Shown here in pieces: positions 7,287 through 31,300 of a DNA stretch of 64,000 nucleotides. The DNA is taken from positions 72,693-136,692 of the forward strand of contig CAPAOV010000003.1 in the NCBI GenBank assembly GCA_948579355.1, given 5' to 3'. This stretch comes from an uncultured Eubacterium sp. Lineage in GTDB: Bacteria > Bacillota > Clostridia > Lachnospirales > Lachnospiraceae. A program made the position numbers and the translations under genes. The notes under the pieces are model-generated. The model searched no databases and had not been told where the DNA came from. It saw only the letters and a program-made list of their open reading frames with translations. Each line of letters opens with the position of its first letter. The stretch's first letter is position 1.

Positions 7287-7315
7287 TTGACAAAAGTCAC
7301 TGTTTTATTTATAAT
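7287..7315 (+). promoter_or_regulatory. Sigma-70-type promoter of the TetR operon
   Basis: TTGACA (7287-7292), 17-nt spacer, TATAAT (7310-7315). Confidence 0.7.
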
Positions 7316-7349
7316 CAAGTTATATAAATAATTTATATAACTTGATTAT
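7311..7349. promoter_or_regulatory. Perfect 19-1-19 palindrome, putative TetR operator overlapping the -10 box
   Basis: ATAATCAAGTTATATAAAT-a-ATTTATATAACTTGATTAT, checked base by base. Confidence 0.7.
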
Positions 7350-7362
7350 AAGGAGGTACATA

Positions 7363-8351: not shown

Positions 8352-8971
8352 AAAAAGGAATTATTGTTTATCAGTCTAAATATGGTGCTACAAAAAAATA
8401 TGCTGAATGGCTTCAAGATATGACAAATTTTTATTGTGTAGGAATATCGAAAGTGACAGTAGATGAAGTGATGCCATACAAAACAGTCATATTTTGCGGC
8501 GGTATATATGCTTCTAGAATTGCAGGATTACCGTTTTTGAAAAAGAACATTGACAAATTGAAAAATAAAAAAGTGGCGGTATTGTGTGTAGGAGCTTCTC
8601 CCTATGATGAAAGTGCATTTGCAGAAATTAGGGCACATAATTTAACAGGCGATTTAAAAAATATTTCACTTTTTTATGGAAGGGGTGCATGGAATGAGAG
8701 CAAAATGAATTTTGTGGATAGAACTTTGCGAAAAATGTTGCTAAAATCTGTTGCTAAAAAAGATCCCAGTACATATGAACCGTGGATGAAAGCTCTTATG
8801 AATGCGAGAGGACAAAATTGTGATTGGACAGATAGGAAATATTTGGCCCCACTACTAGATTATCTGCAAAAACGAACATGGAAACGCGGTGATAATTTGA
8901 ATAAACCAGAATGGATTTTATGGATTCCCTGCAGTTCCTTAAACGAGTGTGTGAAGAAAAGGACCTGTTGA
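8345..8971 (+). CDS. Flavodoxin-domain protein. No canonical start for the full domain, and the 3' end runs into the rbr-derived repeat.
   Basis: The frame is open from 8333 and reads ...IIEKGIIVYQSKYGATKKYAEW (flavodoxin beta1 plus phosphate loop) upstream of the first ATG (8420). Only ATT/ATA codons are available as starts. The last 15 codons are read from the repeat and MITE sequence. Confidence 0.6.
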   Translation: MIEKGIIVYQSKYGATKKYAEWLQDMTNFYCVGISKVTVDEVMPYKTVIFCGGIYASRIAGLPFLKKNIDKLKNKKVAVLCVGASPYDESAFAEIRAHNLTGDLKNISLFYGRGAWNESKMNFVDRTLRKMLLKSVAKKDPSTYEPWMKALMNARGQNCDWTDRKYLAPLLDYLQKRTWKRGDNLNKPEWILWIPCSSLNECVKKRTC

Positions 8972-9074
8972 CAAATGAAAGAAAAATGATCTCTCATATG
9001 GTATAATTATTATATTAATTGCGGGAGGTCATTTTTTCTTTCATTTGTCAACAGGTCCAAAGTTTCACAGACTC
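8945..9074. mobile_element. 130-bp MITE-like element with about 45-bp imperfect terminal inverted repeats and an 8-bp target-site duplication
   Basis: CCTTAAAC occurs at 8937-8944 and 9075-9082 but only once (877-884) in repeat copy A. TIR core GGACCTGTTGACAAATGAAAGAAAAA (8961-8986) is perfectly inverted at 9033-9058. Both outer ends begin GAGT(G/C)TGTGAA. No ORF. Confidence 0.8.
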
Positions 9075-9082
9075 CCTTAAAC

Positions 9083-18891: not shown

Positions 18892-19374
18892 TTAGTTCTT
18901 ATGAAAATCCAAAATTTCGTATTGAATAAAACCAACCGGTGTCTCTACCTCTACGGTATCTCCCTTTTGCGCGCCAATCAGCGCTTTTCCCACCGGAGAT
19001 TCATTGGAGATTTTACCTTTCAGGCTGTTTGCTTCCGTGGAACCTACAATCTTGTATTCCATCTCCTCTTCGAATTCCATATCCTTTATTTTCACTGTGC
19101 AGCCTACATTAATTACACTTGCGTCAACATCGTCGTCATCAACTACTTCTGCATTTTTCAGTATTTTGTCTATTTCCTCAATCCGAAGTTCAATGTCGCG
19201 CTGTTCTTCTTTCGCTGCGTCATACTCCGCATTCTCGGATAAATCGCCCTGCTCCCTTGCTTCCTTAATTTTCTGAGCAACTTCACGACGTCGATTCACT
19301 TTCAAATCATGCAATTCATCTTCTAACGCTTTTAATCCCTCATACGTTAAAATTTTCTTCTTTGTTTCAGCCAT
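18892..19374 (-). CDS. greA: Transcription elongation factor GreA
   Basis: LTYEGLKALEDEL..L...RR.E....I.EAR..GDLSENAEYDAAKEEQ. ATG at 19374 lies behind GGGAGGT. Confidence 0.93.
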   Translation of the reverse strand: MAETKKKILTYEGLKALEDELHDLKVNRRREVAQKIKEAREQGDLSENAEYDAAKEEQRDIELRIEEIDKILKNAEVVDDDDVDASVINVGCTVKIKDMEFEEEMEYKIVGSTEANSLKGKISNESPVGKALIGAQKGDTVEVETPVGFIQYEILDFHKN

Positions 19375-19445
19375 GGATATACCTCCCGAAATTCTTAATT
19401 GTACCGCCAACCGAACATAAAATCAGGTTGACTACACATCGTTTT

Positions 19446-19474: not shown

Positions 19475-19593
19475 TTCCGCAGCCATTTGAGTTTCGCCCA
19501 TTTTTGTAGCAAGGCGGTGGGTATCCTGCCCTATCTTGTCCGGTATACCGCTCCAAACGAAAAATAGATTATTTCTTTCATTTCCAATCCGTA

Positions 19594-21990
19594 TTAATCA
19601 AGAAACGGCTTCTTTTCTGCTTCCGAATCTTCCTGTTCCTCGGTGGCGCGGATTAAAATATTATGATATTTTTTAGCAATATTATTCAGCGTGTTTTTCT
19701 GCATTGCGGCCCAGTTTGCTTCGGAAATAGAGCAAATCGTATCCGCATATCCCGCTTTTACGGAAGCATCCGTCGTCGGTCCCATCTGCATAATAACACG
19801 AATCGGATAGTAGCGGCAGTCTTCAAACGTATTTTCCGTTACCGTTGGATTGAGAACACCGCGCAGCAGCAGCGCCACATATTTATATGGATTTCCCGAG
19901 TCATTTCGTTTACCATCATCCAACGACTGAATATTCATAAACGTATTTCCCTTAATAAGGGTATCTTTCCAGTTTAGAGCGCGTATTGCCACATTATACG
20001 TTCCATCAAAACAATTGTTTATAATCTGCACATTCTCCTGATATAGCTGTTTTGTGCCGTCGACAGAATAAGTATGGCTGCCAATGGCCGTTCCCACATT
20101 TTTAAATACATTATTGCGAATATAAACGTCCTTACATGTGAGCATATCATGGGCAGACCAGTCATAATTGAAGCCGTCGGTAACTAAATCGTTACCATCT
20201 ACATTGATACACTCTTTATGGCTCTTCTCGTCGAGCGGCTTAAATCCCTCAAACATGCATTTTTCAAAAACTACGTTTTGAGAAGAATTTAATTCCACAA
20301 AATGAGAGCCATATTGATTTTGGAAAGTAACTCCCTGAATTAAAATATTCCTTGCGTGTCCCATCACCAGACCCATGCAATTTTTTACATTGGCACAGTT
20401 GATTCGGGCCGTTCCCTGACCGATAATTTTAATATCGTGCGCCCCATTGTAACTGCGTACCGTTCCCTTTGTCCCATCTTTCGACGGCGGCACTAGGGTA
20501 AAAAGCGATTTGGCATAACAGATATCCGTTGCTGTTGTTCCCGACTTTGTAAAATTGACGCCGTTTTCGAGTGTCATCGTTACATTTGAGGGAATACAAA
20601 TATGATTCGTAACCGGATAATTGCCAGCCTTTACTGTAATTGTACCGCCTCCGGCATATTCCAACTGTTCCATATAAGACAGGAACGTATAGTACACACG
20701 GCGCTTGGAAAAGTCTGCCGCATCGTTATACTTCTCATGGTACGGCCCCGTAGATGAAGTGATAACAAATGCTTTATCTGCTTTATTCCTCACATAGGTA
20801 ATACGCGTCTTGCCGTTGAGTATATAATAATGGCTCAGTTCGCTTGCCGCATTTGCCGCCAGCTTATTTTTCGCTGCCGTGCCAATAACGGATGCCACAC
20901 TTGGCATCTTCTTTCCCTTGCCGGCATTCGCCGCCTTATTAAAGCAGGCCAGAAACTTACATTTACTAACTGTATTTGACGCCACTGACGGCTCATAAAC
21001 ACCATAACCGTACACTGCGCTGCCTGTCTTCTTTTTCGAAGATACAAGCTTAATCGTATTGTTTTTTATCGCCGGCTTTTTCCACAAGACGGCATAAACC
21101 GCGCATTTTTGCGTATCCGTAAATGTATTTTTATCAATTGTGATTTTCGTCTGGTAATGCTTTGTCGTCTTTTTTGCAGACTTTACGACAACTGATTTCG
21201 TCGTGCCAACACCGATATCCGCAGACTGAAATTCATTTCTGGTAATCGTGATGGATTTATTTTTCGTATTATCTAACTTACTCCATTTTCCGGTAAAGTC
21301 ATTTGTCGTCTCATTGATTGTCTCCAAGCGTATCGCCATGCGGTTTTTCAAACCTGAAACAGCCGCTCCTTTTTGAAAAACACAATTGCTGACCGTCACG
21401 TTCTGGGAGCCCTCTATCCAGACGTAACTGCCGCCTTTTTTATTTTTAAATGTAACGCCGCTGATTTTTACATCGGAAGCGTGGCCGATATATACAGCGG
21501 TCGCTCCTTTTACTTTCCCGAGGTCAATCGCGGCCTTTCCGGAACCCTTTATACTCACTTTCTTCGACGATTGGTATTTTGACACCGTACGGTTCTGTGA
21601 AGCCTTTTGGGAAGAAACCGTTTGCAATAAAACTTTCGTCGCCTTTAATTTCCCCGTTCCCGTAGCCTTAGTCTTTTTTATTTTCGCGCCGGATTTTAAT
21701 TCTATCGTCACATTTGATGGCACTGACAGTGTGCCCGGAACTTTATAAGTACCTTTCTTTAACTTCAAAGTTCCCCCGGTTTCCCCCAGACGGTCCAGAT
21801 ACGATTGCAGCATCAAAAACTGTTTTGTCTTTGCATTGTATTGCGGCTTCTGCCGATACGCCCTGCTGCAGGGAATCGTCTTTGGATTCACCGTAACCGT
21901 TCTCTTCTTCGCCTCAGCATTCTGTCCGCATAAACCGATACCGGCCATCATGCCAACCATACCCATAATAATCATCCACTGTTTTTTCAT
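19594..21990 (-). CDS. Secreted protein with two right-handed parallel beta-helix (pectate-lyase-fold) modules
   Basis: Signal peptide. Two internally similar modules (GGTLKLKKGTYKVPGTLSVPSNVTI / GGTITVKAGNYPVTNHICIPSNVTM) followed by N/G/V-rich beta-helix repeats. Confidence 0.7.
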   Translation of the reverse strand: MKKQWMIIMGMVGMMAGIGLCGQNAEAKKRTVTVNPKTIPCSRAYRQKPQYNAKTKQFLMLQSYLDRLGETGGTLKLKKGTYKVPGTLSVPSNVTIELKSGAKIKKTKATGTGKLKATKVLLQTVSSQKASQNRTVSKYQSSKKVSIKGSGKAAIDLGKVKGATAVYIGHASDVKISGVTFKNKKGGSYVWIEGSQNVTVSNCVFQKGAAVSGLKNRMAIRLETINETTNDFTGKWSKLDNTKNKSITITRNEFQSADIGVGTTKSVVVKSAKKTTKHYQTKITIDKNTFTDTQKCAVYAVLWKKPAIKNNTIKLVSSKKKTGSAVYGYGVYEPSVASNTVSKCKFLACFNKAANAGKGKKMPSVASVIGTAAKNKLAANAASELSHYYILNGKTRITYVRNKADKAFVITSSTGPYHEKYNDAADFSKRRVYYTFLSYMEQLEYAGGGTITVKAGNYPVTNHICIPSNVTMTLENGVNFTKSGTTATDICYAKSLFTLVPPSKDGTKGTVRSYNGAHDIKIIGQGTARINCANVKNCMGLVMGHARNILIQGVTFQNQYGSHFVELNSSQNVVFEKCMFEGFKPLDEKSHKECINVDGNDLVTDGFNYDWSAHDMLTCKDVYIRNNVFKNVGTAIGSHTYSVDGTKQLYQENVQIINNCFDGTYNVAIRALNWKDTLIKGNTFMNIQSLDDGKRNDSGNPYKYVALLLRGVLNPTVTENTFEDCRYYPIRVIMQMGPTTDASVKAGYADTICSISEANWAAMQKNTLNNIAKKYHNILIRATEEQEDSEAEKKPFLD

Positions 21991-23306: not shown

Positions 23307-24112
23307 GAAAACTGATTAAACACGAATTTAAGGATACAATACGCTTATTTTGGCCGATTTTCAGCCTTATCGTTGTATTGACACCGCTTTTCGCCTTTTT
23401 GATGAAATTGGGCCTAAATGGTACTTTTTTAGGCTACGAAGAGCAAAATGGCCTGAACCTGACCTATGCCTTACAGGGAGGGTTAATCGGATACTATTTG
23501 CTTCTTTTAGGACTCTTCCTCAGCTGCCAGATTATGATGGCGCTGCGTTTCTACCGCACGGTTGCAACGAACGAGGCCTATCTGACTTTTACGCTGCCAA
23601 CCTCGACGGGTAAAATTTTATTTAGCAAATGGCTGATTGCCATGCTATATTACATAGTATCCGGAATCCTTGCTTTTTTCTCTATTCTTTTTACTATTAT
23701 TGTAGCTACACCCGCCACTTTTAGAGAAATAGTACAGGCCTTTGAGGATTTGATACTCAATATTGACATTGACAGTTTCTCCCTGCTTTCTTTAGTAGTG
23801 CTTGTATTTATCGTTTCCGGCGCCGCTAAGATACTGCAGTTTTATGTTTCCATTGTGCTGGGGCAGTTATTCCGTTCCCATCGGGCGATAATCAGTATCG
23901 GCTTTTACATCGCGCTGTCGGTCGTATTGCAAATCGTCAGTTCCCTTGTATTGCTGCCAGTCATCTACTTTAACTTTTTGGACGGTCTTTCATCATCCAA
24001 CTATGTATTTCACTCCTTCCTGTTGATGCTTATACTGTTCAATGCGGTTCTTGCCGGAGGATTCTATTTTACGACATATTTGATTATGCGCAAGCGGCTG
24101 AACGTAAGGTAG
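23300..24112 (+). CDS. Polytopic membrane protein (ABC-2-type permease partner)
   Basis: Six or so hydrophobic helices. Overlaps the ATPase stop. Confidence 0.7.
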   Translation: MLGKLIKHEFKDTIRLFWPIFSLIVVLTPLFAFLMKLGLNGTFLGYEEQNGLNLTYALQGGLIGYYLLLLGLFLSCQIMMALRFYRTVATNEAYLTFTLPTSTGKILFSKWLIAMLYYIVSGILAFFSILFTIIVATPATFREIVQAFEDLILNIDIDSFSLLSLVVLVFIVSGAAKILQFYVSIVLGQLFRSHRAIISIGFYIALSVVLQIVSSLVLLPVIYFNFLDGLSSSNYVFHSFLLMLILFNAVLAGGFYFTTYLIMRKRLNVR

Positions 24113-24144
24113 CCTGACGGTAACAAGCCGAGCTAAATAAACAA

Positions 24145-24216
24145 CAAAAAATCCACGAATCATTGTAAAAGAAGAGAGGCTTACAAACAAACTCTCCCAC
24201 CGATTCGTGGATTTTT
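24145..24216. terminator. Bidirectional terminator between the ABC operon and prfC
   Basis: AAAAAATCCACGAATC ... GATTCGTGGATTTTT, with an inner GAGAG/CTCTC helix. A/T tracts on both sides. Confidence 0.6.
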
Positions 24217-24240
24217 AATAAATTTTTTCCCAGCCACTGG

Positions 24241-25836
24241 CTAATTCCGTGAAAATTCGCTCAGTAAAAGATTTTCGTTGCGCTCAAGAGCTGTTTGTAT
24301 GCTCCACGGGTGGGTAAAGAGCAGAAGCGGACGGTCACGCAAATCTTTTACTTTCTTTGTATCCGAAGTTACCGATAATGACGCCACATCAATTTCCTTA
24401 TTTTCAATCCAGCGGACATGTTCATATGGCAACTGCTCCATCCGTATTTCCACATTATACTCATTCTCTAAGCGATACTGGAGGACCTCAAACTGGAGGA
24501 CGCCGACAACGCCGACAATGATTTCTTCCATTCCGGTGTTCATCTCTTGAAAAATCTGAATCGCACCCTCTTGAGCAATCTGAGTAATCCCTTTCATAAA
24601 CTGTTTTCTCTTCATCGTATCCACCTGACGCACGCGCGCGAAATGCTCCGGTGCAAAAGTTGGAATACCCTCAAAACAAACAGGCTCCTTACCTTTATAT
24701 AACGTATCCCCAATGGAGAAAATACCCGGGTCAAAGACGCCGATTATATCGCCGGCATATGCCTCCTCCACATGTTTTCTTTCCTGCGCCATCATCTGCT
24801 GCGGCTGTGCGAGACGAATCTTCTTTCCTCCCTGCACATGCATGACTTCCATGCCCGCCTCGAACTTACCGGAACAAATACGCATAAAGGCGATACGGTC
24901 GCGGTGCGCCTTATTCATATTCGCCTGAATCTTAAAAACAAAAGCAGAAAATTCATCCGAAAAAGGATTGACAGGAGTTCCTTGCGACTCCCGCGGCAAT
25001 GGCGACGTCGTCATTTCCAAAAAGTGCTGCAAAAAAGTTTCCACGCCAAAATTTGTCAGCGCAGAGCCGAAAAACACCGGTGACAGTTGTCCTGCCCGCA
25101 CTTTTTCCAAATCAAACTCATCGCTGGCCCCATCAAGCAATTCAATTTCATCCACCAGAATGTCATGGTATTCTTTTGTAATCAAATCATCCAGATTCGC
25201 ATCGCCGAGTTTCGCCTTAATTGTCTCAACCTTTTGTCCGTTATCTCCAGAGAGAAAGCGGGAAATCGTCTGCGTATTGCGGTCGTAGACCCCCTTAAAA
25301 TTTTTCCCCGAGCCAATCGGCCAGTTAATCGGACAGGTGCGAATACCAAGCACATTTTCTATCTGGTCCATCAGTTCAAAGGCGTCCATCGCCTCTCTAT
25401 CCATTTTATTAATAAAAGTAAAAATCGGAATACCGCGCATCACGCATACTTTAAAAAGCTTGATTGTCTGCGCCTCAACACCTTTGGAGCCGTCGATGAC
25501 CATCACTGCAGAATCGGCGGCCATCAGCGTCCGATAAGTATCTTCCGAAAAGTCCTGATGTCCCGGCGTATCTAGAATGTTGATACAAAAATTGTCATAA
25601 TTAAACTGCAGTACCGAAGAAGTCACCGAGATTCCTCTCTCTTTCTCAATCTCCATCCAGTCGGAAACCGCATGTTTAGCCGCCTTACGCCCCTTTACCG
25701 AGCCCGCCAGATTAATGGCGCCGCCGTATAAAAGAAACTTTTCCGTCAACGTCGTCTTTCCGGCGTCCGGATGTGATATGATAGCAAAGGTACGACGCTT
25801 TTCAACTTCCTTTTTCCATAAATCGCCCATCTTCAT
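24241..25836 (-). CDS. prfC: Peptide chain release factor 3
   Basis: RRTFAIISHPDAGKTTLTEK, DTPGHQDF, NKMD GTPase motifs and RF3 length. The start is 25836 or 25830. Confidence 0.93.
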   Translation of the reverse strand: MKMGDLWKKEVEKRRTFAIISHPDAGKTTLTEKFLLYGGAINLAGSVKGRKAAKHAVSDWMEIEKERGISVTSSVLQFNYDNFCINILDTPGHQDFSEDTYRTLMAADSAVMVIDGSKGVEAQTIKLFKVCVMRGIPIFTFINKMDREAMDAFELMDQIENVLGIRTCPINWPIGSGKNFKGVYDRNTQTISRFLSGDNGQKVETIKAKLGDANLDDLITKEYHDILVDEIELLDGASDEFDLEKVRAGQLSPVFFGSALTNFGVETFLQHFLEMTTSPLPRESQGTPVNPFSDEFSAFVFKIQANMNKAHRDRIAFMRICSGKFEAGMEVMHVQGGKKIRLAQPQQMMAQERKHVEEAYAGDIIGVFDPGIFSIGDTLYKGKEPVCFEGIPTFAPEHFARVRQVDTMKRKQFMKGITQIAQEGAIQIFQEMNTGMEEIIVGVVGVLQFEVLQYRLENEYNVEIRMEQLPYEHVRWIENKEIDVASLSVTSDTKKVKDLRDRPLLLFTHPWSIQTALERNENLLLSEFSRN

Positions 25837-25864
25837 TCTCCTCTCCAAACAAATCTGTTTTCAG

Positions 25865-25896
25865 GCAAAAGAAAAGTCCTGACATCAATCAGGACT
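25865..25896 (-). terminator. Terminator after tRNA-Gln
   Basis: AGTCCTGA/TCAGGACT stem followed on the minus strand by TTTCTTTT. Confidence 0.65.
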
Positions 25897-25902
25897 AGTG
25901 AG

Positions 25903-25974
25903 CTGGGCTACAAGGATTCGAACCTTGAAATGCTGGAGTCAGAGTCCAGTGCCTTACCATTTGGCGATAGCCCA
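25903..25974 (-). tRNA. tRNA-Gln (anticodon CTG)
   Basis: Hand-folded cloverleaf: acceptor TGGGCTA/TAGCCCA, anticodon stem CTGGA/TCCAG with loop CTCTGAC, T-arm GGTTCGAATCC. No encoded CCA. Confidence 0.9.
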
Positions 25975-25992
25975 ATTACAACCACAAGCGAT

Positions 25993-26021
25993 ATTATACA
26001 TGAAACATTTTAAGAATGCAA
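25993..26021 (-). promoter_or_regulatory. Promoter of tRNA-Gln
   Basis: On the minus strand: TTGCAT, 17 nt, TATAAT. Confidence 0.6.
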
Positions 26022-26061
26022 GTAGTTTTTTCATATTTTTTGTACTTTTTTCACCACTTTT

Positions 26062-26523
26062 TTACGGATACTTCTTTTTATCTGCTTTTCCGGCACTGTC
26101 AATCTCTGCCGCTTGCGTTTTACTCATGCGTACGGCCGTACTTTTTTGCACATCGTATGTTCCTACCTGCTGCTTTTTCGGAAATTTCATCCCCATCGTC
26201 AACGCCTTTTTATATATGGTATCATAATCAACAAGCAGACTTTCTTCCTCTTTCTGCAATACTACATTTCCCTTTATCATATCATCAACTTGTGACTGCA
26301 GCGCATATACCGACTTATCTAACATAACTTTGCGATTTTCCAGCCGTACTACATAAAAACATAAAAGAATAAGCAATCCCGTTATCACAAGCGCTGCCAG
26401 TAAATGCTTTAAAATACTTTTCCGTACCCTTTCTTTGCGTACGTCAATAACCGTTATCTTATTTTTGCTGCTTCTTATCTGTATGGCAGTATTTCCTACC
26501 ATATAATCCATCGTCGCCCTCAT
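26062..26523 (-). CDS. Single-pass membrane protein (FtsL/DivIC-like topology), function unknown
   Basis: 153-aa ORF, GGAGGAG RBS, one TM helix (LLAALVITGLLILLCFYVV) followed by a coiled-coil-like segment. Confidence 0.6.
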   Translation of the reverse strand: MRATMDYMVGNTAIQIRSSKNKITVIDVRKERVRKSILKHLLAALVITGLLILLCFYVVRLENRKVMLDKSVYALQSQVDDMIKGNVVLQKEEESLLVDYDTIYKKALTMGMKFPKKQQVGTYDVQKSTAVRMSKTQAAEIDSAGKADKKKYP

Positions 26524-26544
26524 CCGCTCCTCCGTAACTTTTAT

Positions 26545-26694
26545 CTAATCCCTGCGTCTTTCTTTCTGATTATCGGTAGCTTCAACAATCAACATTGTAA
26601 TCGCACCGGAGCGGCTTGTATAATGCTCATCTGCATAGTGGTCAATGCGCTCAAGCACCTTATCATCTAACGTTATGTTGATTCTCTTCTTCAT
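26545..26694 (-). CDS. Ribbon-helix-helix (CopG-like) small protein, 49 aa
   Basis: Not in the ORF track. The MKKRINITLDDKVLERIDHYADEHYTSRSGAITMLI pattern is typical RHH. The stop lies 21 nt before the next gene's start. Confidence 0.6.
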   Translation of the reverse strand: MKKRINITLDDKVLERIDHYADEHYTSRSGAITMLIVEATDNQKERRRD

Positions 26695-26750
26695 ACCGCC
26701 CCTCTTTCCATACATATTATATACTTACTTTATACACATGAATTACTTAT

Positions 26751-26779
26751 ATTATACACACTTTTTCACCACTTTGCAA
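26751..26779 (-). promoter_or_regulatory. Promoter of the RHH/membrane-protein operon
   Basis: On the minus strand: TTGCAA, 17 nt, TATAAT. Confidence 0.55.
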
Positions 26780-26803
26780 CAACTATTTGTTTTTTTCGGG
26801 GCA

Positions 26804-27255
26804 GCGGGTATCATGCGGTATCTTATCCGGTATCCACTCCCAACGAAAAATACATTGCTTCTTTTGTTTACAGAAACCTTTCGCCGCCCCCTCGCAAAAC
26901 TCGCTATCCGCTGTCGTTTTTCCTGACTTTTGCAGCATTGACCGCTCGCCGGTTCTTATACACCACCGTTTGTTACTAATTACTGCGGGTGGCACCAAAG
27001 GTGCCGTTTCGTGGAAGAAAGAAGCGGAAAACAAATTTATTCATTTTCGGCTTCTTTCTTCCACGAACAGATGCTTCGCATCTGCCCGCAGTAAAAACGC
27101 AATCGTTCTGGTGGTGCATTACAAACGGGCTGCCAAAAGTCAGAAAAAACGACAGCAGACATCTCAGACAATTGCTCGGGCGGCGTTCTGTAAACAAAAG
27201 AAACAATAATTTTTCGGGGAGTGATACAAGGACAACGATACCGTATGATACCCGC
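26804..27255. ncRNA. 452-nt imperfect fold-back (long inverted repeat). Candidate large structured RNA, or a foldback DNA element. Strand unknown.
   Basis: Arms 26804-27031 and 27044-27255 pair through perfect blocks of 7-23 bp, e.g. 26859-26875 with 27186-27202 and 27010-27025 with 27050-27065. These are separated by unrelated segments. Overlapping ORFs on both strands are artefacts. Confidence 0.5.
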
Positions 27256-27322
27256 GCAGTGCACAAATTTCGATAGACAAATGATTAAGCGATTGCCCTA
27301 ACCTGAGAACAAAAAATGAATC

Positions 27323-27354
27323 AAAAAAAGAACCGCAAATCAAATTGCAGTTCT
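27323..27354 (-). terminator. Rho-independent terminator ending the tRNA-Gly transcription unit
   Basis: On the minus strand: GAACTGCAATTTGATTTGCGGTTC hairpin followed by TTTTTTT. Confidence 0.65.
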
Positions 27355-27608
27355 ATATAAAAAAACGGCGACTGAAAATTGCTCCGCGCAGGACAATCTT
27401 TCTTATAAAGATTTAGGTGTCAAAAACCCTTTCTTGTTAAAAGAAATGACAATATGCCAATCCATTAAGAAATAAGGGGCTTTTGACACCCGAATCCTAT
27501 AAACCACGAGCGTCACGCTTCGCGAGACTGCTCGGGTTCGCGGGCGCGCTCGGATAGTCTTGTGCAAGCACAGACATATCCTCACTTTGCCTCCGCGTAA
27601 ATAAAAAA
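27355..27608 (-). ncRNA. Unassigned GC-rich structured segment co-transcribed downstream of tRNA-Gly
   Basis: Lies between the tRNA 3' end and the terminator. It has helices 27416-27429/27477-27490, an imperfect hairpin at 27552-27581 and nested CGAGCG/CGCTCG stems. No credible ORF. Confidence 0.4.
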
Positions 27609-27681
<73 letters not shown>

Positions 27682-27701
27682 ATTTGTTAAACACAAGTGC
27701 T

Positions 27702-27730
27702 ATTATACTCAAAAAGCGTCTCCCTGTCAA
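27702..27730 (-). promoter_or_regulatory. Consensus promoter of tRNA-Gly, overlapping the maf stop codon
   Basis: On the minus strand: TTGACA, 17 nt, TATAAT. The -10 ends about 20 nt before the tRNA 5' end. Confidence 0.7.
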
Positions 27731-28305
27731 GTTCTTTTTGCAAAATCTTTTAATGCCTCATATAAAGCATGTACAGGCAGGCCGACAACAGTAAAATAAT
27801 CTCCCTCCACTCCCTCGATATACTTGGCAAACAGTCCCTGTATACCATAACCGCCCGCCTTGTCATAAGGTTCTTCCGTCCGGATATACTCCTCCACTTC
27901 CTCTTCCGTCATGGGAGCTACGTTTACTTTCGTACCTGTGTGAAAACAGAGAGAATGCCCCCTGTCTGCCGAATCGACAAGACAGACACCAGTATATACC
28001 ATATGGCTGCGAGCCTGAAGCATCGTAATCATCGCTCTGGCATCCGCCCTGTCTTTCGGTTTCCCCAAAATTTTACCGTCTGCGGCCACTACCGTGTCCG
28101 CTCCGATAACAATACCATGGTCAAGTAAATCTGCCACTGCCGCCGCCTTTTGGCAGGCCAGTTCTTCCGTCACTTTTGCCGGATTCGTACTTGTAATTAT
28201 CTCCTCTTCTTCCGACACGATAACTTCAAACGGAAGTCCCAACAGTTGCAGCAATTCTTTTCTTCTGGGAGATTTTGACGCCAATACAAGACGCAGTTGT
28301 TTCAT
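27727..28305 (-). CDS. maf: Maf-family nucleoside triphosphate pyrophosphatase (septum formation protein)
   Basis: LASKSPRRKELL...GADTVV...GKP...GGYGIQG motifs. Confidence 0.92.
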   Translation of the reverse strand: MKQLRLVLASKSPRRKELLQLLGLPFEVIVSEEEEIITSTNPAKVTEELACQKAAAVADLLDHGIVIGADTVVAADGKILGKPKDRADARAMITMLQARSHMVYTGVCLVDSADRGHSLCFHTGTKVNVAPMTEEEVEEYIRTEEPYDKAGGYGIQGLFAKYIEGVEGDYFTVVGLPVHALYEALKDFAKRT

Positions 28306-28347
28306 AACCGCCCTCCCTGCAAATATTATAAAAATACAATTCCGCTA

Positions 28348-31300
28348 TCATTTAAAATAATTTACGCCGCTTGCAAAAATCTTTTGGTCTTGTTGCCCGT
28401 AAATATTGATAGCTACACCATCGCCACGTCGCTCGGAATGCGCCATCTTGCCAAGAACACGTCCGTCCGGACTTGTAATACCCTCGATGGCACAGTAGGA
28501 GCCATTCGGATTGAAATCTTCATCCATCGTCGGATTTCCATCAATATCTACATACTGCGTAGCAACCTGTCCATTCTCAAAAAGTTTCTTGAGCCATTCA
28601 TCATTCGCTACAAAACGGCCCTCTCCGTGAGATGCCGGTATAGCGTAGACACCGCCAAGCTCCGCCTCTTGCAGCCATGGCGATTTATTCGTTACCACTT
28701 TCGTATACACGGACTTGGAAATATGACGGCCAATGCTATTCGTTGTCAACGTCGGAGAATCCGCCGTCTGGGTAGTTATTTTGCCATATGGCACAAGTCC
28801 AAGTTTGACAAGAGCCTGAAAACCGTTGCAGATACCAAGCACCAAACCGTCCCTCTTATCAAGAAGTTCGTGTACGGCATCCTGTATTTTCTCGTTGCGG
28901 AATACCGATGTAATAAACTTCGCTGAGCCATCCGGCTCATCTCCGGCGCTGAAACCACCGGAAAACATAAGAATCTGCGATTCGCGAATCACCTTTTCAA
29001 AGGCGTCTACACTATCAGTAATGTTTTGTTCCGTCATATTGCAGAAGACAACGCTTTCTGTGTCTGCTCCCGCCTCCTGAAAGGAAATGGTCGTATCATA
29101 TTCACAGTTTGTCCCCGGAAATACCGGTATAAATACTTTCGGTCTTGCCACTTTGTGCTTACATACATAGATTTCTTTTGTCTCGTATGTTCCCGTATCT
29201 ATTTTTCGCTGTTCGACACCAGAGCGCGTCGGGAATACTTTCTCCAACGTTCCCGTCCATGCCTCTAATGCCTCTTCCAGAGAAATCACTTCTTCGTCAC
29301 AGACAAATTGCGGCTCCGCAAGAACTTTACCGAATTTTTCATATGCGATTCCCATTTCATCCAATAAAGATAAGTCTTCTTCGTTTATCTCCGCCACAAT
29401 CTCACCGTAAGCAGGGGTAAAGAAAAATTCTTTCGGACGGTGTTTACAGAATTTAGCGCCAAACTTATTGCCAAACGCCATTTTGGCAACCGCTTCTGCT
29501 ATTCCGTTGCCATCCAGCGCCTGTGCCGAGAGAATCACACCATCGCGCATTAATTTTAAAATCTTATCATACTGCTCCATAATAAATGCGAAATCCGGTA
29601 AATCATAGTCATCCCTTTTTATGTTAAATTTAACAAGCCGGCTGCCCGCTTTCTTAAATTCATTTGTAATTACATCTTTTACCTTGGCAACAGCAACGGC
29701 AAAGGAGCACAACGTAGGCGGTACATCAATGTCGTTAAATGTACCGGACATGCTGTCTTTCCCGCCAATGGATGGAAGTCCGAGCTTCATCTGCGCATCA
29801 AACGCCCCCAGAAGAGCCGCCATCGGTTCACCCCAGCGTTGCGAATCTTCTGTCATCCGCTTGAAGTATTCCTGAAAAGTAAAACGTATCTTCCGGTAGT
29901 CCCCTCCGGCTGCTACAATCTTGGCAACAGAAGTTAATACCGCATATTCTGCTCCGTGATAAGGACTCCAGCTCATTAGATATGAATCCATGCCATAACT
30001 CATCATCGTAACCGTATCGCATTTGCCCTCAAGAACAGGCAGTTTGGCAATCATTGTCTGTGTCGGCGTCAACTGATATTTTCCGCCATAAGGCATATTT
30101 ACGGTACAGGCTCCGATAGAGCTGTCGAACATCTCTACCAGTCCTTTCTTGGAACAGACATTCAAATCTGCCAGTTTGTTCAAAAATGCCTCTTTGAAAC
30201 TATCCGCCTTATCTACCTGCTGTAAATAATTGTCCTCTTTTTTCGGACTCACTACCTGTACGTCGGTCTCCTGATGAGCGCCGTTAGTATCCAAAAATGC
30301 ACGGGAAATATTTACGATTTCCTTTCCCCGCCATTTCAAAACCAGACGCGGTTCTCTGGTGACCGTTGCCACACATACCGCCTCCAGATTTTCTTCTTCC
30401 GCATACGCCAGCATTTGTTCAACATCTTTGGAGTCGACGACAATTGCCATTCTCTCCTGCGACTCGGAAATTGCCAGTTCCGTTCCATCCAGACCGGCAT
30501 ATTTCTTCGGCACCTTGTCAAGGTCGACAATTAAACCGTCTGCCAATTCACCAATCGCCACCGATACACCGCCGGCGCCAAAATCATTACACTTTTTAAT
30601 CAGGCTGCTGACTTCTCTCCGACGGAACAAACGCTGAATCTTACGCTCTGTCGGCGCATTTCCTTTCTGTACTTCCGCGCCGCACGTATCTATTGATTCG
30701 GTATTGTGCGCTTTGGAAGAGCCAGTCGCCCCTCCGCAACCGTCACGTCCGGTTCGTCCGCCAAGTAATATAATGATATCACCCGCATCCGAATTTTCGC
30801 GGATTACATTTTTTCTCGGCGCCGCACCCATGACAGCGCCAATCTCCAAACGTTTTGCCACATAATTCGGATGGTAAACTTCATCGACAAGTCCGGTTGC
30901 CAGACCAATCTGGTTTCCATAAGAACTGTAACCCTGAGCAGCCCCTGTGACAATTTTTCTCTGGGCCAGTTTGCCCTCCATCGTATCTTTCAATGATTTT
31001 GTCGGGTCTGCTGCTCCAGTCACCCGCATCGCCTGATAGACATAACCGCGGCCGGAAAGCGGGTCGCGAATCGCCCCGCCAAGGCAGGTGGCTGCACCAC
31101 CAAAAGGCTCAATCTCCGTCGGATGATTGTGCGTCTCATTTTTAAAGAATACAAGCCATTCCTCCTCCTGCGGCCCATTTCCATAATCAATCTCAACGGG
31201 CACAACAATCGAGCAGGCATTAATTTCATCCGACTCTTCCATATCATCAAGTTTCCCCTCCGCACGAAGCTTTTTCATGCCAAGAAGGGCAATATCCATC

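Follow-up and report, generated by a model that had tools for sequence, protein, structure and literature searches.

Prokaryotic MITEs, for which we follow the definition given in section 2.1 of PMC10969869, are mostly intergenic, multi-copy elements with no transposase or other coding capacity, typically shorter than 500 bp, that end in terminal inverted repeats (TIRs) of about 4-30 bp and, at least in their younger copies, are flanked by direct repeats, and whose movement depends on a related autonomous IS with like ends, acting in trans; Coxiella QMITE1/2, Geobacter Chunjie, Neisseria Correia, enterobacterial ERIC and pneumococcal RUP are examples (PMC10969869). Among eukaryotes, Foldback (FB) and the FB-like Galileo and Tetris elements are mobile DNAs whose bulk consists of long inverted repeats (PMC3573991, PMC4079207). 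The insertion sequence ISArsp11, a member of the ISAs1 family, has the inverted repeat CAGGGCTGATGCAAAGTCG (CAGGGCT...) and a 10-bp direct repeat (PMC6305408, Table 3).

The 452-nt fold-back described here lies within a 64,000-nt stretch of DNA from an uncultured Eubacterium sp., the whole of which we refer to as the window. It had been read from the sequence alone as a candidate large ornate non-coding RNA (or foldback element) beside a tRNA-Gly gene. We find that it is very probably the body of a non-autonomous, fold-back MITE-like transposon, of which the window carries an old, immobile insertion; it is not a new class of ornate RNA, so that a false lead is removed, and is instead a further example of the prokaryotic MITE kind. 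In common with other prokaryotic MITEs, the element is non-coding, multi-copy and intergenic and has TIRs; duplications are found in the better-preserved copies and are lost from old ones, truncated and internally deleted copies form a gradient, and a very stable stem-loop is predicted for its transcript. Whereas the usual MITE consists of TIRs around an unconstrained core, almost all of the interior of this element can pair with itself, in about 180 pairs that show covariation, and the side hairpins specific to each arm are conserved. No parent IS was found, and its hosts so far are a narrow group of mouse-gut Clostridia. As in FB, Galileo and Tetris, the DNA folds back, is structurally dynamic and suffers frequent internal deletions; those elements are eukaryotic and kilobase-scale with tandem-repetitive arms, however, while this one is bacterial, about 0.5 kb long and has arms of unique sequence, and there is no sign of common descent.

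The fold-back in the window

The pairing blocks proposed in the sequence-only reading were all recovered by a repeat finder where that reading had placed them (Table 1), and both of the arm-specific triloop hairpins that it described are seen in the minimum free energy (MFE) structures. Either strand of the 452-nt stretch folds into a single long branched hairpin, with an MFE of -230 kcal/mol (z -17.4) for the plus strand and -262 kcal/mol (z -24.8) for the minus strand, and 0 of 100 shuffles was as good in either case. A supposed 1-nt indel between the arms did not survive alignment, which shows 40 gap columns and hence many indels, with 173 of 206 aligned positions identical. The three GGTATC motifs at the base of the left arm may be protein-binding repeats.

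The interval originally proposed is correct for the inner fold-back, but homology with other copies and comparison with an empty site place the true unit at 26789-27300; the outer inverted-repeat end on the right had been missed. Homology to more than 20 other copies covers approximately 26781-27302. Defined against the empty locus L065 and the remnant L061, the left junction consists of host CAACTATTT, ending at 26788, followed by GTTTTTTTCGGGGCAGC, and the right junction of GATTGCCCTA (27300) followed by ACCTGAGAA. The window copy lacks the preceding 22 nt of the left outer TIR and the left target duplication, as well as 24 nt of the right arm that are present in other copies and mirror the left-arm GACCGCTCGCCGGT; having no left terminal repeat, it is to be regarded as an immobile fossil. 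The sequence at 26773-26793 was considered as a degenerate left TIR and ruled out, being host sequence according to the empty site. The ACCTGAGAA that follows the right end is probably the surviving right copy of the target-site duplication.

Table 1. Positions of the element, its parts and neighbouring features in the window (a dot denotes a feature without strand)
Feature	Position	Strand	Basis or remarks
Whole element copy, 512 nt, fold-back MITE-like repeat	26789..27300	+	Left end truncated, right end intact
Left subterminal residue GTTTTTTTCGGGGCA (consensus GTCATTTTCAGGGCA)	26789..26803	+	Family alignment, junction comparison
Inner fold-back, arms pairing over ~200 bp	26804..27255	.	Repeats, MFE folds, arm alignment; terminus single-copy within the window
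Base pairing block, I6	26804-26822/27237-27255		Repeat finder
Three GGTATC motifs, 10-12 bp spacing, base of left arm	26807..26834	+	Mirrored at 27222-27252; read from sequence; region conserved with co-variation in family (helix 1)
Pairing block I3, containing 17-bp block	26859-26875 with 27186-27202 (17-bp block)		Repeat finder
Pairing block I4	26907-26932/27134-27159		Repeat finder
32-nt block CCTGACTTTTGCAGCATTGACCGCTCGCCGGT	26922..26953	+	Invariant in first seven copies found; part of it was the search pattern, so conservation among copies found with that pattern is partly by construction
Pairing block I16	26980-26989/27085-27094		Repeat finder
Left-arm-specific hairpin GGCACC-AAA-GGTGCC	26991..27005	+	MFE; family helix 9
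Pairing block I2	27008-27036/27039-27067		Repeat finder
Inverted-repeat block I7, among those confirmed			Repeat finder
Right-arm-specific hairpin CAGATGC-TTC-GCATCTG	27068..27084	+	MFE; family helix 12; stem invariant in 12 copies
Right outer TIR, TAGGGCAATCGCTTAATCATTTGTC on minus strand	27276..27300	-	Exact match to family consensus; 0 mismatches (fuzzy TIR search)
Putative right copy of target-site duplication, ACCTGAGAA	27301..27309	+	Suggested by empty L065 (...ACCCTA/AACCTCGAAC); left copy gone with truncation
Terminator-like hairpin	27354-27329	-	
Second insertion, ~245 nt	27359-27603		Directly after 3' T-run of tRNA-Gly
87-nt inverted repeat within second insertion	27410-27496		GGGTGTCAAAAGCCC.../...GGGTTTTTGACACC
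tRNA-Gly	27681-27609	-	
Promoter-like site	26779-26751	-	
Small ribbon-helix-helix protein gene	26545-26715	-	PF07878/HicB-like antitoxin C-terminus
153-aa protein gene	26062-26523	-	Single-pass membrane/coiled-coil; no Pfam hit of its own
Solo left-arm fragment, ~75 nt	19510-19586	+	77-80% identical to four different copies (BLAST); in spacer between minus-strand ORFs 18892-19410 and 19594-21990
Inverted repeat, 48-nt arms, 46-nt spacer	8939-9080		83% complementarity
Perfect 21-nt palindrome	7309-7351		

Read along the minus strand, purL and maf come first, then a consensus sigma-70 promoter, tRNA-Gly, the terminator-like hairpin and the fold-back; beyond it lie the promoter-like site, the ribbon-helix-helix gene, the 153-aa gene, tRNA-Gln and prfC. 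The fold-back is thus situated between a terminator-like site and the next promoter-like site. While the tRNA-Gly gene is indeed nearby, it is 309 nt from the end of the element, and both the terminator-like hairpin and a further insertion of about 245 nt intervene.

The syntenic locus in sister genomes was found by way of homologues of the 153-aa protein, and alignments and base-by-base junctions were compared. L065, in which this neighbouring protein is 89% identical, is an empty site (...CAACTATTT/ACCCTAAACCTCGAAC...). In L061, L062 and L064 (96% identical), the right outer repeat and both stem bases are retained and the whole hairpin is gone, through a clean deletion of about 439 nt whose junction shows a GCG microhomology; the full hairpin state at this locus is that of the window, and the neighbouring genes are intact in the relatives from which the hairpin is deleted or absent. 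The truncated left junction (CAACTATTT/GTTTTTTTCGGGG) is common to the window and to L061, L062 and L064, and loss of the left end therefore predates the hairpin deletion there; it would be most simply explained by deletion between an ATTT in the host and an ATTT in the repeat. More distant orthologues of the 153-aa protein (P0023, 57% identity) were not syntenic and provided no further empty sites.

A dispersed family with target-site duplications

Exact-protein look-ups of the maf and 153-aa genes returned short-read contigs that all end at tRNA-Gly or in the left arm and so allowed no comparison of the element; these breaks were the first hint of a palindrome or repeat, and the Logan and ENA contigs of the window's species all end within or adjoining the element. 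A translated 140-codon mechanical ORF running across the element, used as a query against a metagenome protein collection, recovered nine spurious 'proteins' whose contigs carry homologous elements in unrelated contexts. Copies include a full one adjoining FTHFS (L021 and its duplicates), another after rplL (L034), a centre-deleted copy (L032/L033), one reduced to its termini (L031) and, at the L021 locus, a version that lacks 73 nt at the apex (L036). An invariant 22-mer from the 32-nt block gave 18 matches on different contigs of a species-representative genome collection, all of them in two mouse-gut MAGs labelled 'uncultured Eubacterium sp.'; the search being for an exact 22-mer, these figures amount to at least 12 copies in MGBC165605 and at least six in MGBC100342. 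A second block led to six more metagenome contigs. Phage and plasmid collections yielded no match to the element (blastn 'distant'), scans of viral contigs with the inner terminus, apical stem and outer TIR gave chance 18-20-nt matches or none, and a limited literature search turned up nothing relevant on a described MITE or foldback family in Lachnospiraceae or Eubacterium. The analysis documents a repeat family each copy of which interrupts short-read assemblies of mouse-gut Clostridia. The Logan contig L035, which over positions 1-200 connects one member's left arm with the right arm and IS of the L021 copy, had seemed to be a second transposase context. The changeover falls within the invariant 32-mer, and the contig was set aside as most likely a chimera of k=31 assembly; it is a caution for users of such contigs on repeat families.

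Between loci only the element matches the window, and the flanks never do. All 16 independent copies are intergenic, in short spacers, and none is spanned by a long reading frame; their orientation with respect to the neighbouring genes is mixed (-/- five, +/+ two, divergent four, convergent none), and no tRNA is found near the copies at 17 other loci. The only ORFs over the element are mirrored mechanical ones, and neither the four window ORFs nor four of the metagenome 'proteins' contain a Pfam domain above cut-off. Copies within a genome are 67-92% identical (median 82-85%), which indicates an old family with no recent burst.

Intact copies are about 545 bp long (full-length range 531-545 bp), deletion derivatives 300-470 bp. 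At both ends intact copies carry a 25-bp outer TIR, YAGGGCAATCGCTTAATCATTTGTC, of the form T(A/G)GGGCAATCGCTTAATCATTTGTC ... GACAAATGATTAAGCGATTGCCCT(A/G), which lies 18-35 nt outside the GCGGGTATCAT termini recognized in the sequence-only reading. Both of these ends survive at eight independent loci, and at five of them the sequence directly outside is duplicated in the same direction over 9-11 bp, with a single mismatch: ACAATT[C/T]TAT at L038, TT[C/T]TGTGAGTT at L039, TTG[C/T]GAGGC at L043, TC[C/T]TTTATC at L044 and C[C/T]GGCGCACT at L053. The perfect 10-mer TATATCAGAT on both sides of L037 brings the loci with duplications to six altogether, and when the left and right flanks of different loci were cross-paired, 0 of 110 combinations scored as high as the true duplications. 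With the element oriented as in the window (+), the mismatch in each of the five imperfect duplications reads C on the left and T on the right, at a position that varies. This pattern may be due to chance, there being five cases and the observation post-hoc; a general strand bias does not explain it, the family substitution spectrum being symmetric, and it counts against a simple staggered-cut model, which does not predict it.

The MITE reading rests on a family that is multi-copy and dispersed, with TIRs, target duplications, presence or absence at the window locus and deletion derivatives, and on copies that are intergenic in 16 of 16 cases, of mixed orientation and without coding capacity or an Rfam family. 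In terms of the definition cited above, the 25-bp outer TIR is present at both ends of intact copies and at the right end alone of the window copy, direct repeats flank five of eight independent loci and L037, the left end of the window copy having been deleted, there is no coding capacity, and multiple dispersed intergenic copies exist. The sequence-only reading had offered a foldback element as its alternative, which this evidence supports, and had expected of such an element homologues that always flank a transposase or else occur in many copies with target-site duplications; the second of these is what we find, while homologues do not generally flank a transposase. Counting against the MITE reading, besides the C/T pattern and the failure to find an autonomous partner in the sequences searched (below), are the length, which at 531-545 bp for full-length copies is slightly above the typical limit of 500 bp, although this is not a hard boundary; the single terminal repeat and missing target duplication of the window copy; and the maintained stem, since ordinary MITEs need no pairing of their whole interior.

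By established transposition chemistry, duplications of 9-10 bp imply that the target was cleaved with a stagger, by a DDE-type transposase that would have acted in trans. No autonomous partner, and no TIR pair enclosing a transposase, was detected in the sequences examined around the copies or in viral contigs. Elements of the ISAs1 family have ends beginning CAGGG and direct repeats of 8-10 bp; the ends of the present element, TAGGGC or CAGGGC, and its 9-10-bp duplication are compatible with this family, the match being short, and ISAs1 is at best a lead to the source of the transposase. The resemblance to ISArsp11 lies in ends of the form YAGGGC... (CAGGGCAATCG, at the right end of L043 and L053) and in the 9-10-bp duplication, but beyond the first six bases the repeats differ, and no ISAs1-type transposase was seen adjoining any copy or sharing its ends.

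The L021 locus (also L022-L030 and L040) contains, at 766-2374, an IS of about 1.6 kb with 21-bp TIRs (TAATTAGTGTCTGCTGATTAA) and a 480-aa DUF772 + DDE_Tnp_1_2 transposase, inserted 15 nt beyond the inner right end of the fold-back, between this inner end and the outer repeat. Its downstream contexts differ between contigs, which implies that the IS is multi-copy. This transposase gene was ruled out as the partner of the fold-back because its own TIRs are unrelated.

Full and deleted states occur at identical sites not only at the window locus (window against L061) but also for L049 (full) against L031/L055, L050 (full) against L032/L056 and L021 against L036; L039 and L048 represent the same insertion in two MAG species, L048 having three independent deletions. 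Long DNA palindromes that are attacked at extruded hairpins are expected to lose sequence around the apex, and a hairpin-attacking enzyme may be responsible here. The family thus forms a natural series on the fate of long bacterial palindromes, with full, apex-deleted, fully collapsed and empty states at identical sites.

These observations suggest the following course of events. The intact element of about 545 bp, with its YAGGGCAATCGCTTAATCATTTGTC ends and 9-10-bp target duplications, would be the footprint of a DDE-type transposase supplied in trans that cuts its target with a stagger, and copies would have come to rest in short spacers between genes, within a narrow group of Clostridia from the mouse gut that carry the label 'Eubacterium sp.'. 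The insertion in the window, downstream of tRNA-Gly, would be an old one; its left terminal repeat and target duplication then disappeared, apparently by deletion between the ATTT microhomologies, as did the 24 nt of its right arm, and it could no longer move. Instability of the long DNA palindrome would account for repeated deletions of the apex or whole hairpin at fixed loci, including the window locus in sister genomes, while across the family the pairing of the arms would be kept through coordinated changes, either because propagating copies need the hairpin or through conversion between arms or copies.

Arm pairing and alternative readings

The consensus structure of the family, from 12 independent full-length copies, contains 182 pairs with 97.5% of cells paired. 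Two-sided changes are seen at 37 of the 182 pairs. Shuffles gave 14.2 +/- 2.6, none of 500 attaining 37, and sliding the partners by 1-3 columns as a control gave 3-7. The changes cluster in two helices, where they affect 18 of 63 pairs (terminal) and 11 of 18 (apical); mid-arm sequence is almost invariant, partly owing to how the copies were found. The orthologous L039 and L048 also differ in a coordinated manner (CAGT/ACTG vs CGGT/ACCG, and ATGCACC/GGTGCAT vs ACGCACC/GGTGCGT), and together with the covariation this excludes simple neutral decay of a once-perfect palindrome; the number of two-sided pairs further indicates that the stem is maintained by more than the binding of a transposase to the tips. 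The proposal that structure is kept while sequence changes is therefore correct at the level of the family, although a DNA palindrome explains it equally well. Either selection for the hairpin (as DNA or RNA), or arm-to-arm correction in extruded hairpins, or copy-to-copy conversion could be the cause, and the family raises the small question why a non-autonomous element should keep about 180 bp of self-complementarity through coordinated changes.

One possibility is that the element is mobile DNA whose transcript hairpin also acts on the host wherever it has landed, by RNase III/RNase E processing, by stabilisation or termination, or by delivery of a promoter, effects that have been reported for other bacterial MITEs; the structure of the RNA would then be of secondary importance. 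At their left end intact copies have a promoter-like site that faces inward, TTGTCA-16/18-TATCAT, with 10/12 matches and its TTGTCA within the outer repeat, and the left ends of ISs often carry a promoter in that position; insertions favour promoter-side spacers (four divergent, none convergent), and pairing is kept even between the orthologous L039 and L048. Transcripts of prokaryotic MITEs are moreover known to form stable stem-loops, some of which act on expression (PMC10969869, sections 2.1 and 4.1). We nevertheless consider such an effect unlikely, since the window copy lacks the -35 half of the promoter-like site, no terminator-like site is present inside the element, and the hairpin has been lost repeatedly at fixed loci, which speaks against strong selection at the level of the host. 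It is less probable still that the family is a previously undescribed bacterial 'fold-back transposon' with a stem of about 250 bp kept by selection and not mere conversion, in which the hairpin, cruciform or long dsRNA (from the inward promoter-like site) is needed for propagation or is processed to small RNAs; if this were so, the C/T asymmetry of the duplications would point to an unusual integration or repair step.

The reading as a gene for a large structured ncRNA, with a minus-strand transcript downstream of tRNA-Gly and the branched hairpin as its functional fold, now seems very improbable. Its attractions are an extremely stable fold, 32 kcal/mol better for the minus strand in the window copy; mismatches between the arms of that copy, of which 11 transition mismatches become G.U on the minus strand against three on the plus; the strong covariation described above; and conserved side hairpins, one of them with a compensatory change (the L053 counterpart of the left-arm hairpin is GGCGCC...GGCGCC, altered on both sides). 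The strand preference is not conserved, however. Over 21 copies the two strands differ in MFE by anything between +19 and -31 kcal/mol, and by about 0 in the copies that are best preserved; substitutions in the family are symmetric between strands (C>T 73 vs G>A 65; T>C 75 vs A>G 64); and copies lie in either orientation, four of them between divergent genes. None of this points to a conserved strand of transcription. The minus-strand G.U excess was accordingly dropped as an RNA signal, not being common to the other copies. A cmscan of 24000-30000 against Rfam at E<=1 returned only two tRNAs and sub-threshold miRNA-hairpin noise over the apex, four full-length copies gave 0 hits at gathering score, and the covariance models of ROOL, GOLLD, OLE, raiA, HEARO and other large RNAs had no match. 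Like these RNAs the element is several hundred nucleotides long, highly structured and non-coding, and the window copy is near a tRNA; unlike them it forms a simple rod-like hairpin, not a multi-domain fold, and its copies, many to a genome, have TIRs and target duplications, lie in mixed orientation and are polymorphic for presence or absence. Adjacency to a tRNA, central to the ROOL/GOLLD comparison, is unique to the window copy, which moreover sits between a terminator-like site and the next promoter-like site; in close relatives the same locus is empty or has the hairpin deleted with its neighbouring genes intact, and the covariation is equally expected from a maintained DNA palindrome.

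There is similarly little to recommend the reading that a Y1/HUH or similar enzyme (IS200/IS605-type), and not a DDE transposase, moves the element as folded ssDNA, so that it would be a single-strand transposon or recombination substrate dependent on its hairpin. In its favour, the whole element folds with pairing kept beyond its tips, GGTATC repeats lie at the base of the stem and a DDE partner was not found in the sequences searched. Against it, there is no strand asymmetry in folding or mutation spectrum, and the 25-bp TIRs and 9-10-bp duplications are unlike IS200/IS605-type elements, which insert 3' of a short specific motif and are not known to have TIRs or target duplications.

Other features near the element

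The insertion of about 245 nt that separates the element from tRNA-Gly is missing from all four relatives at the locus (L061, L062, L064 and L065) and has T7 runs on both sides. No Rfam match was obtained with it, but parts of it are found again next to the fold-back copies of L054 and L048, and the L037 copy is adjoined by a similar GGCTTTTGACACCC motif; the insertion is probably another small repeat or mobile family. On the other side of the element, some homologues of the 153-aa protein carry a DivIC septum-formation domain (PF04977), and the ribbon-helix-helix and 153-aa genes are kept together as a pair even in relatives that are not syntenic, as in L068, where the two ORFs overlap.
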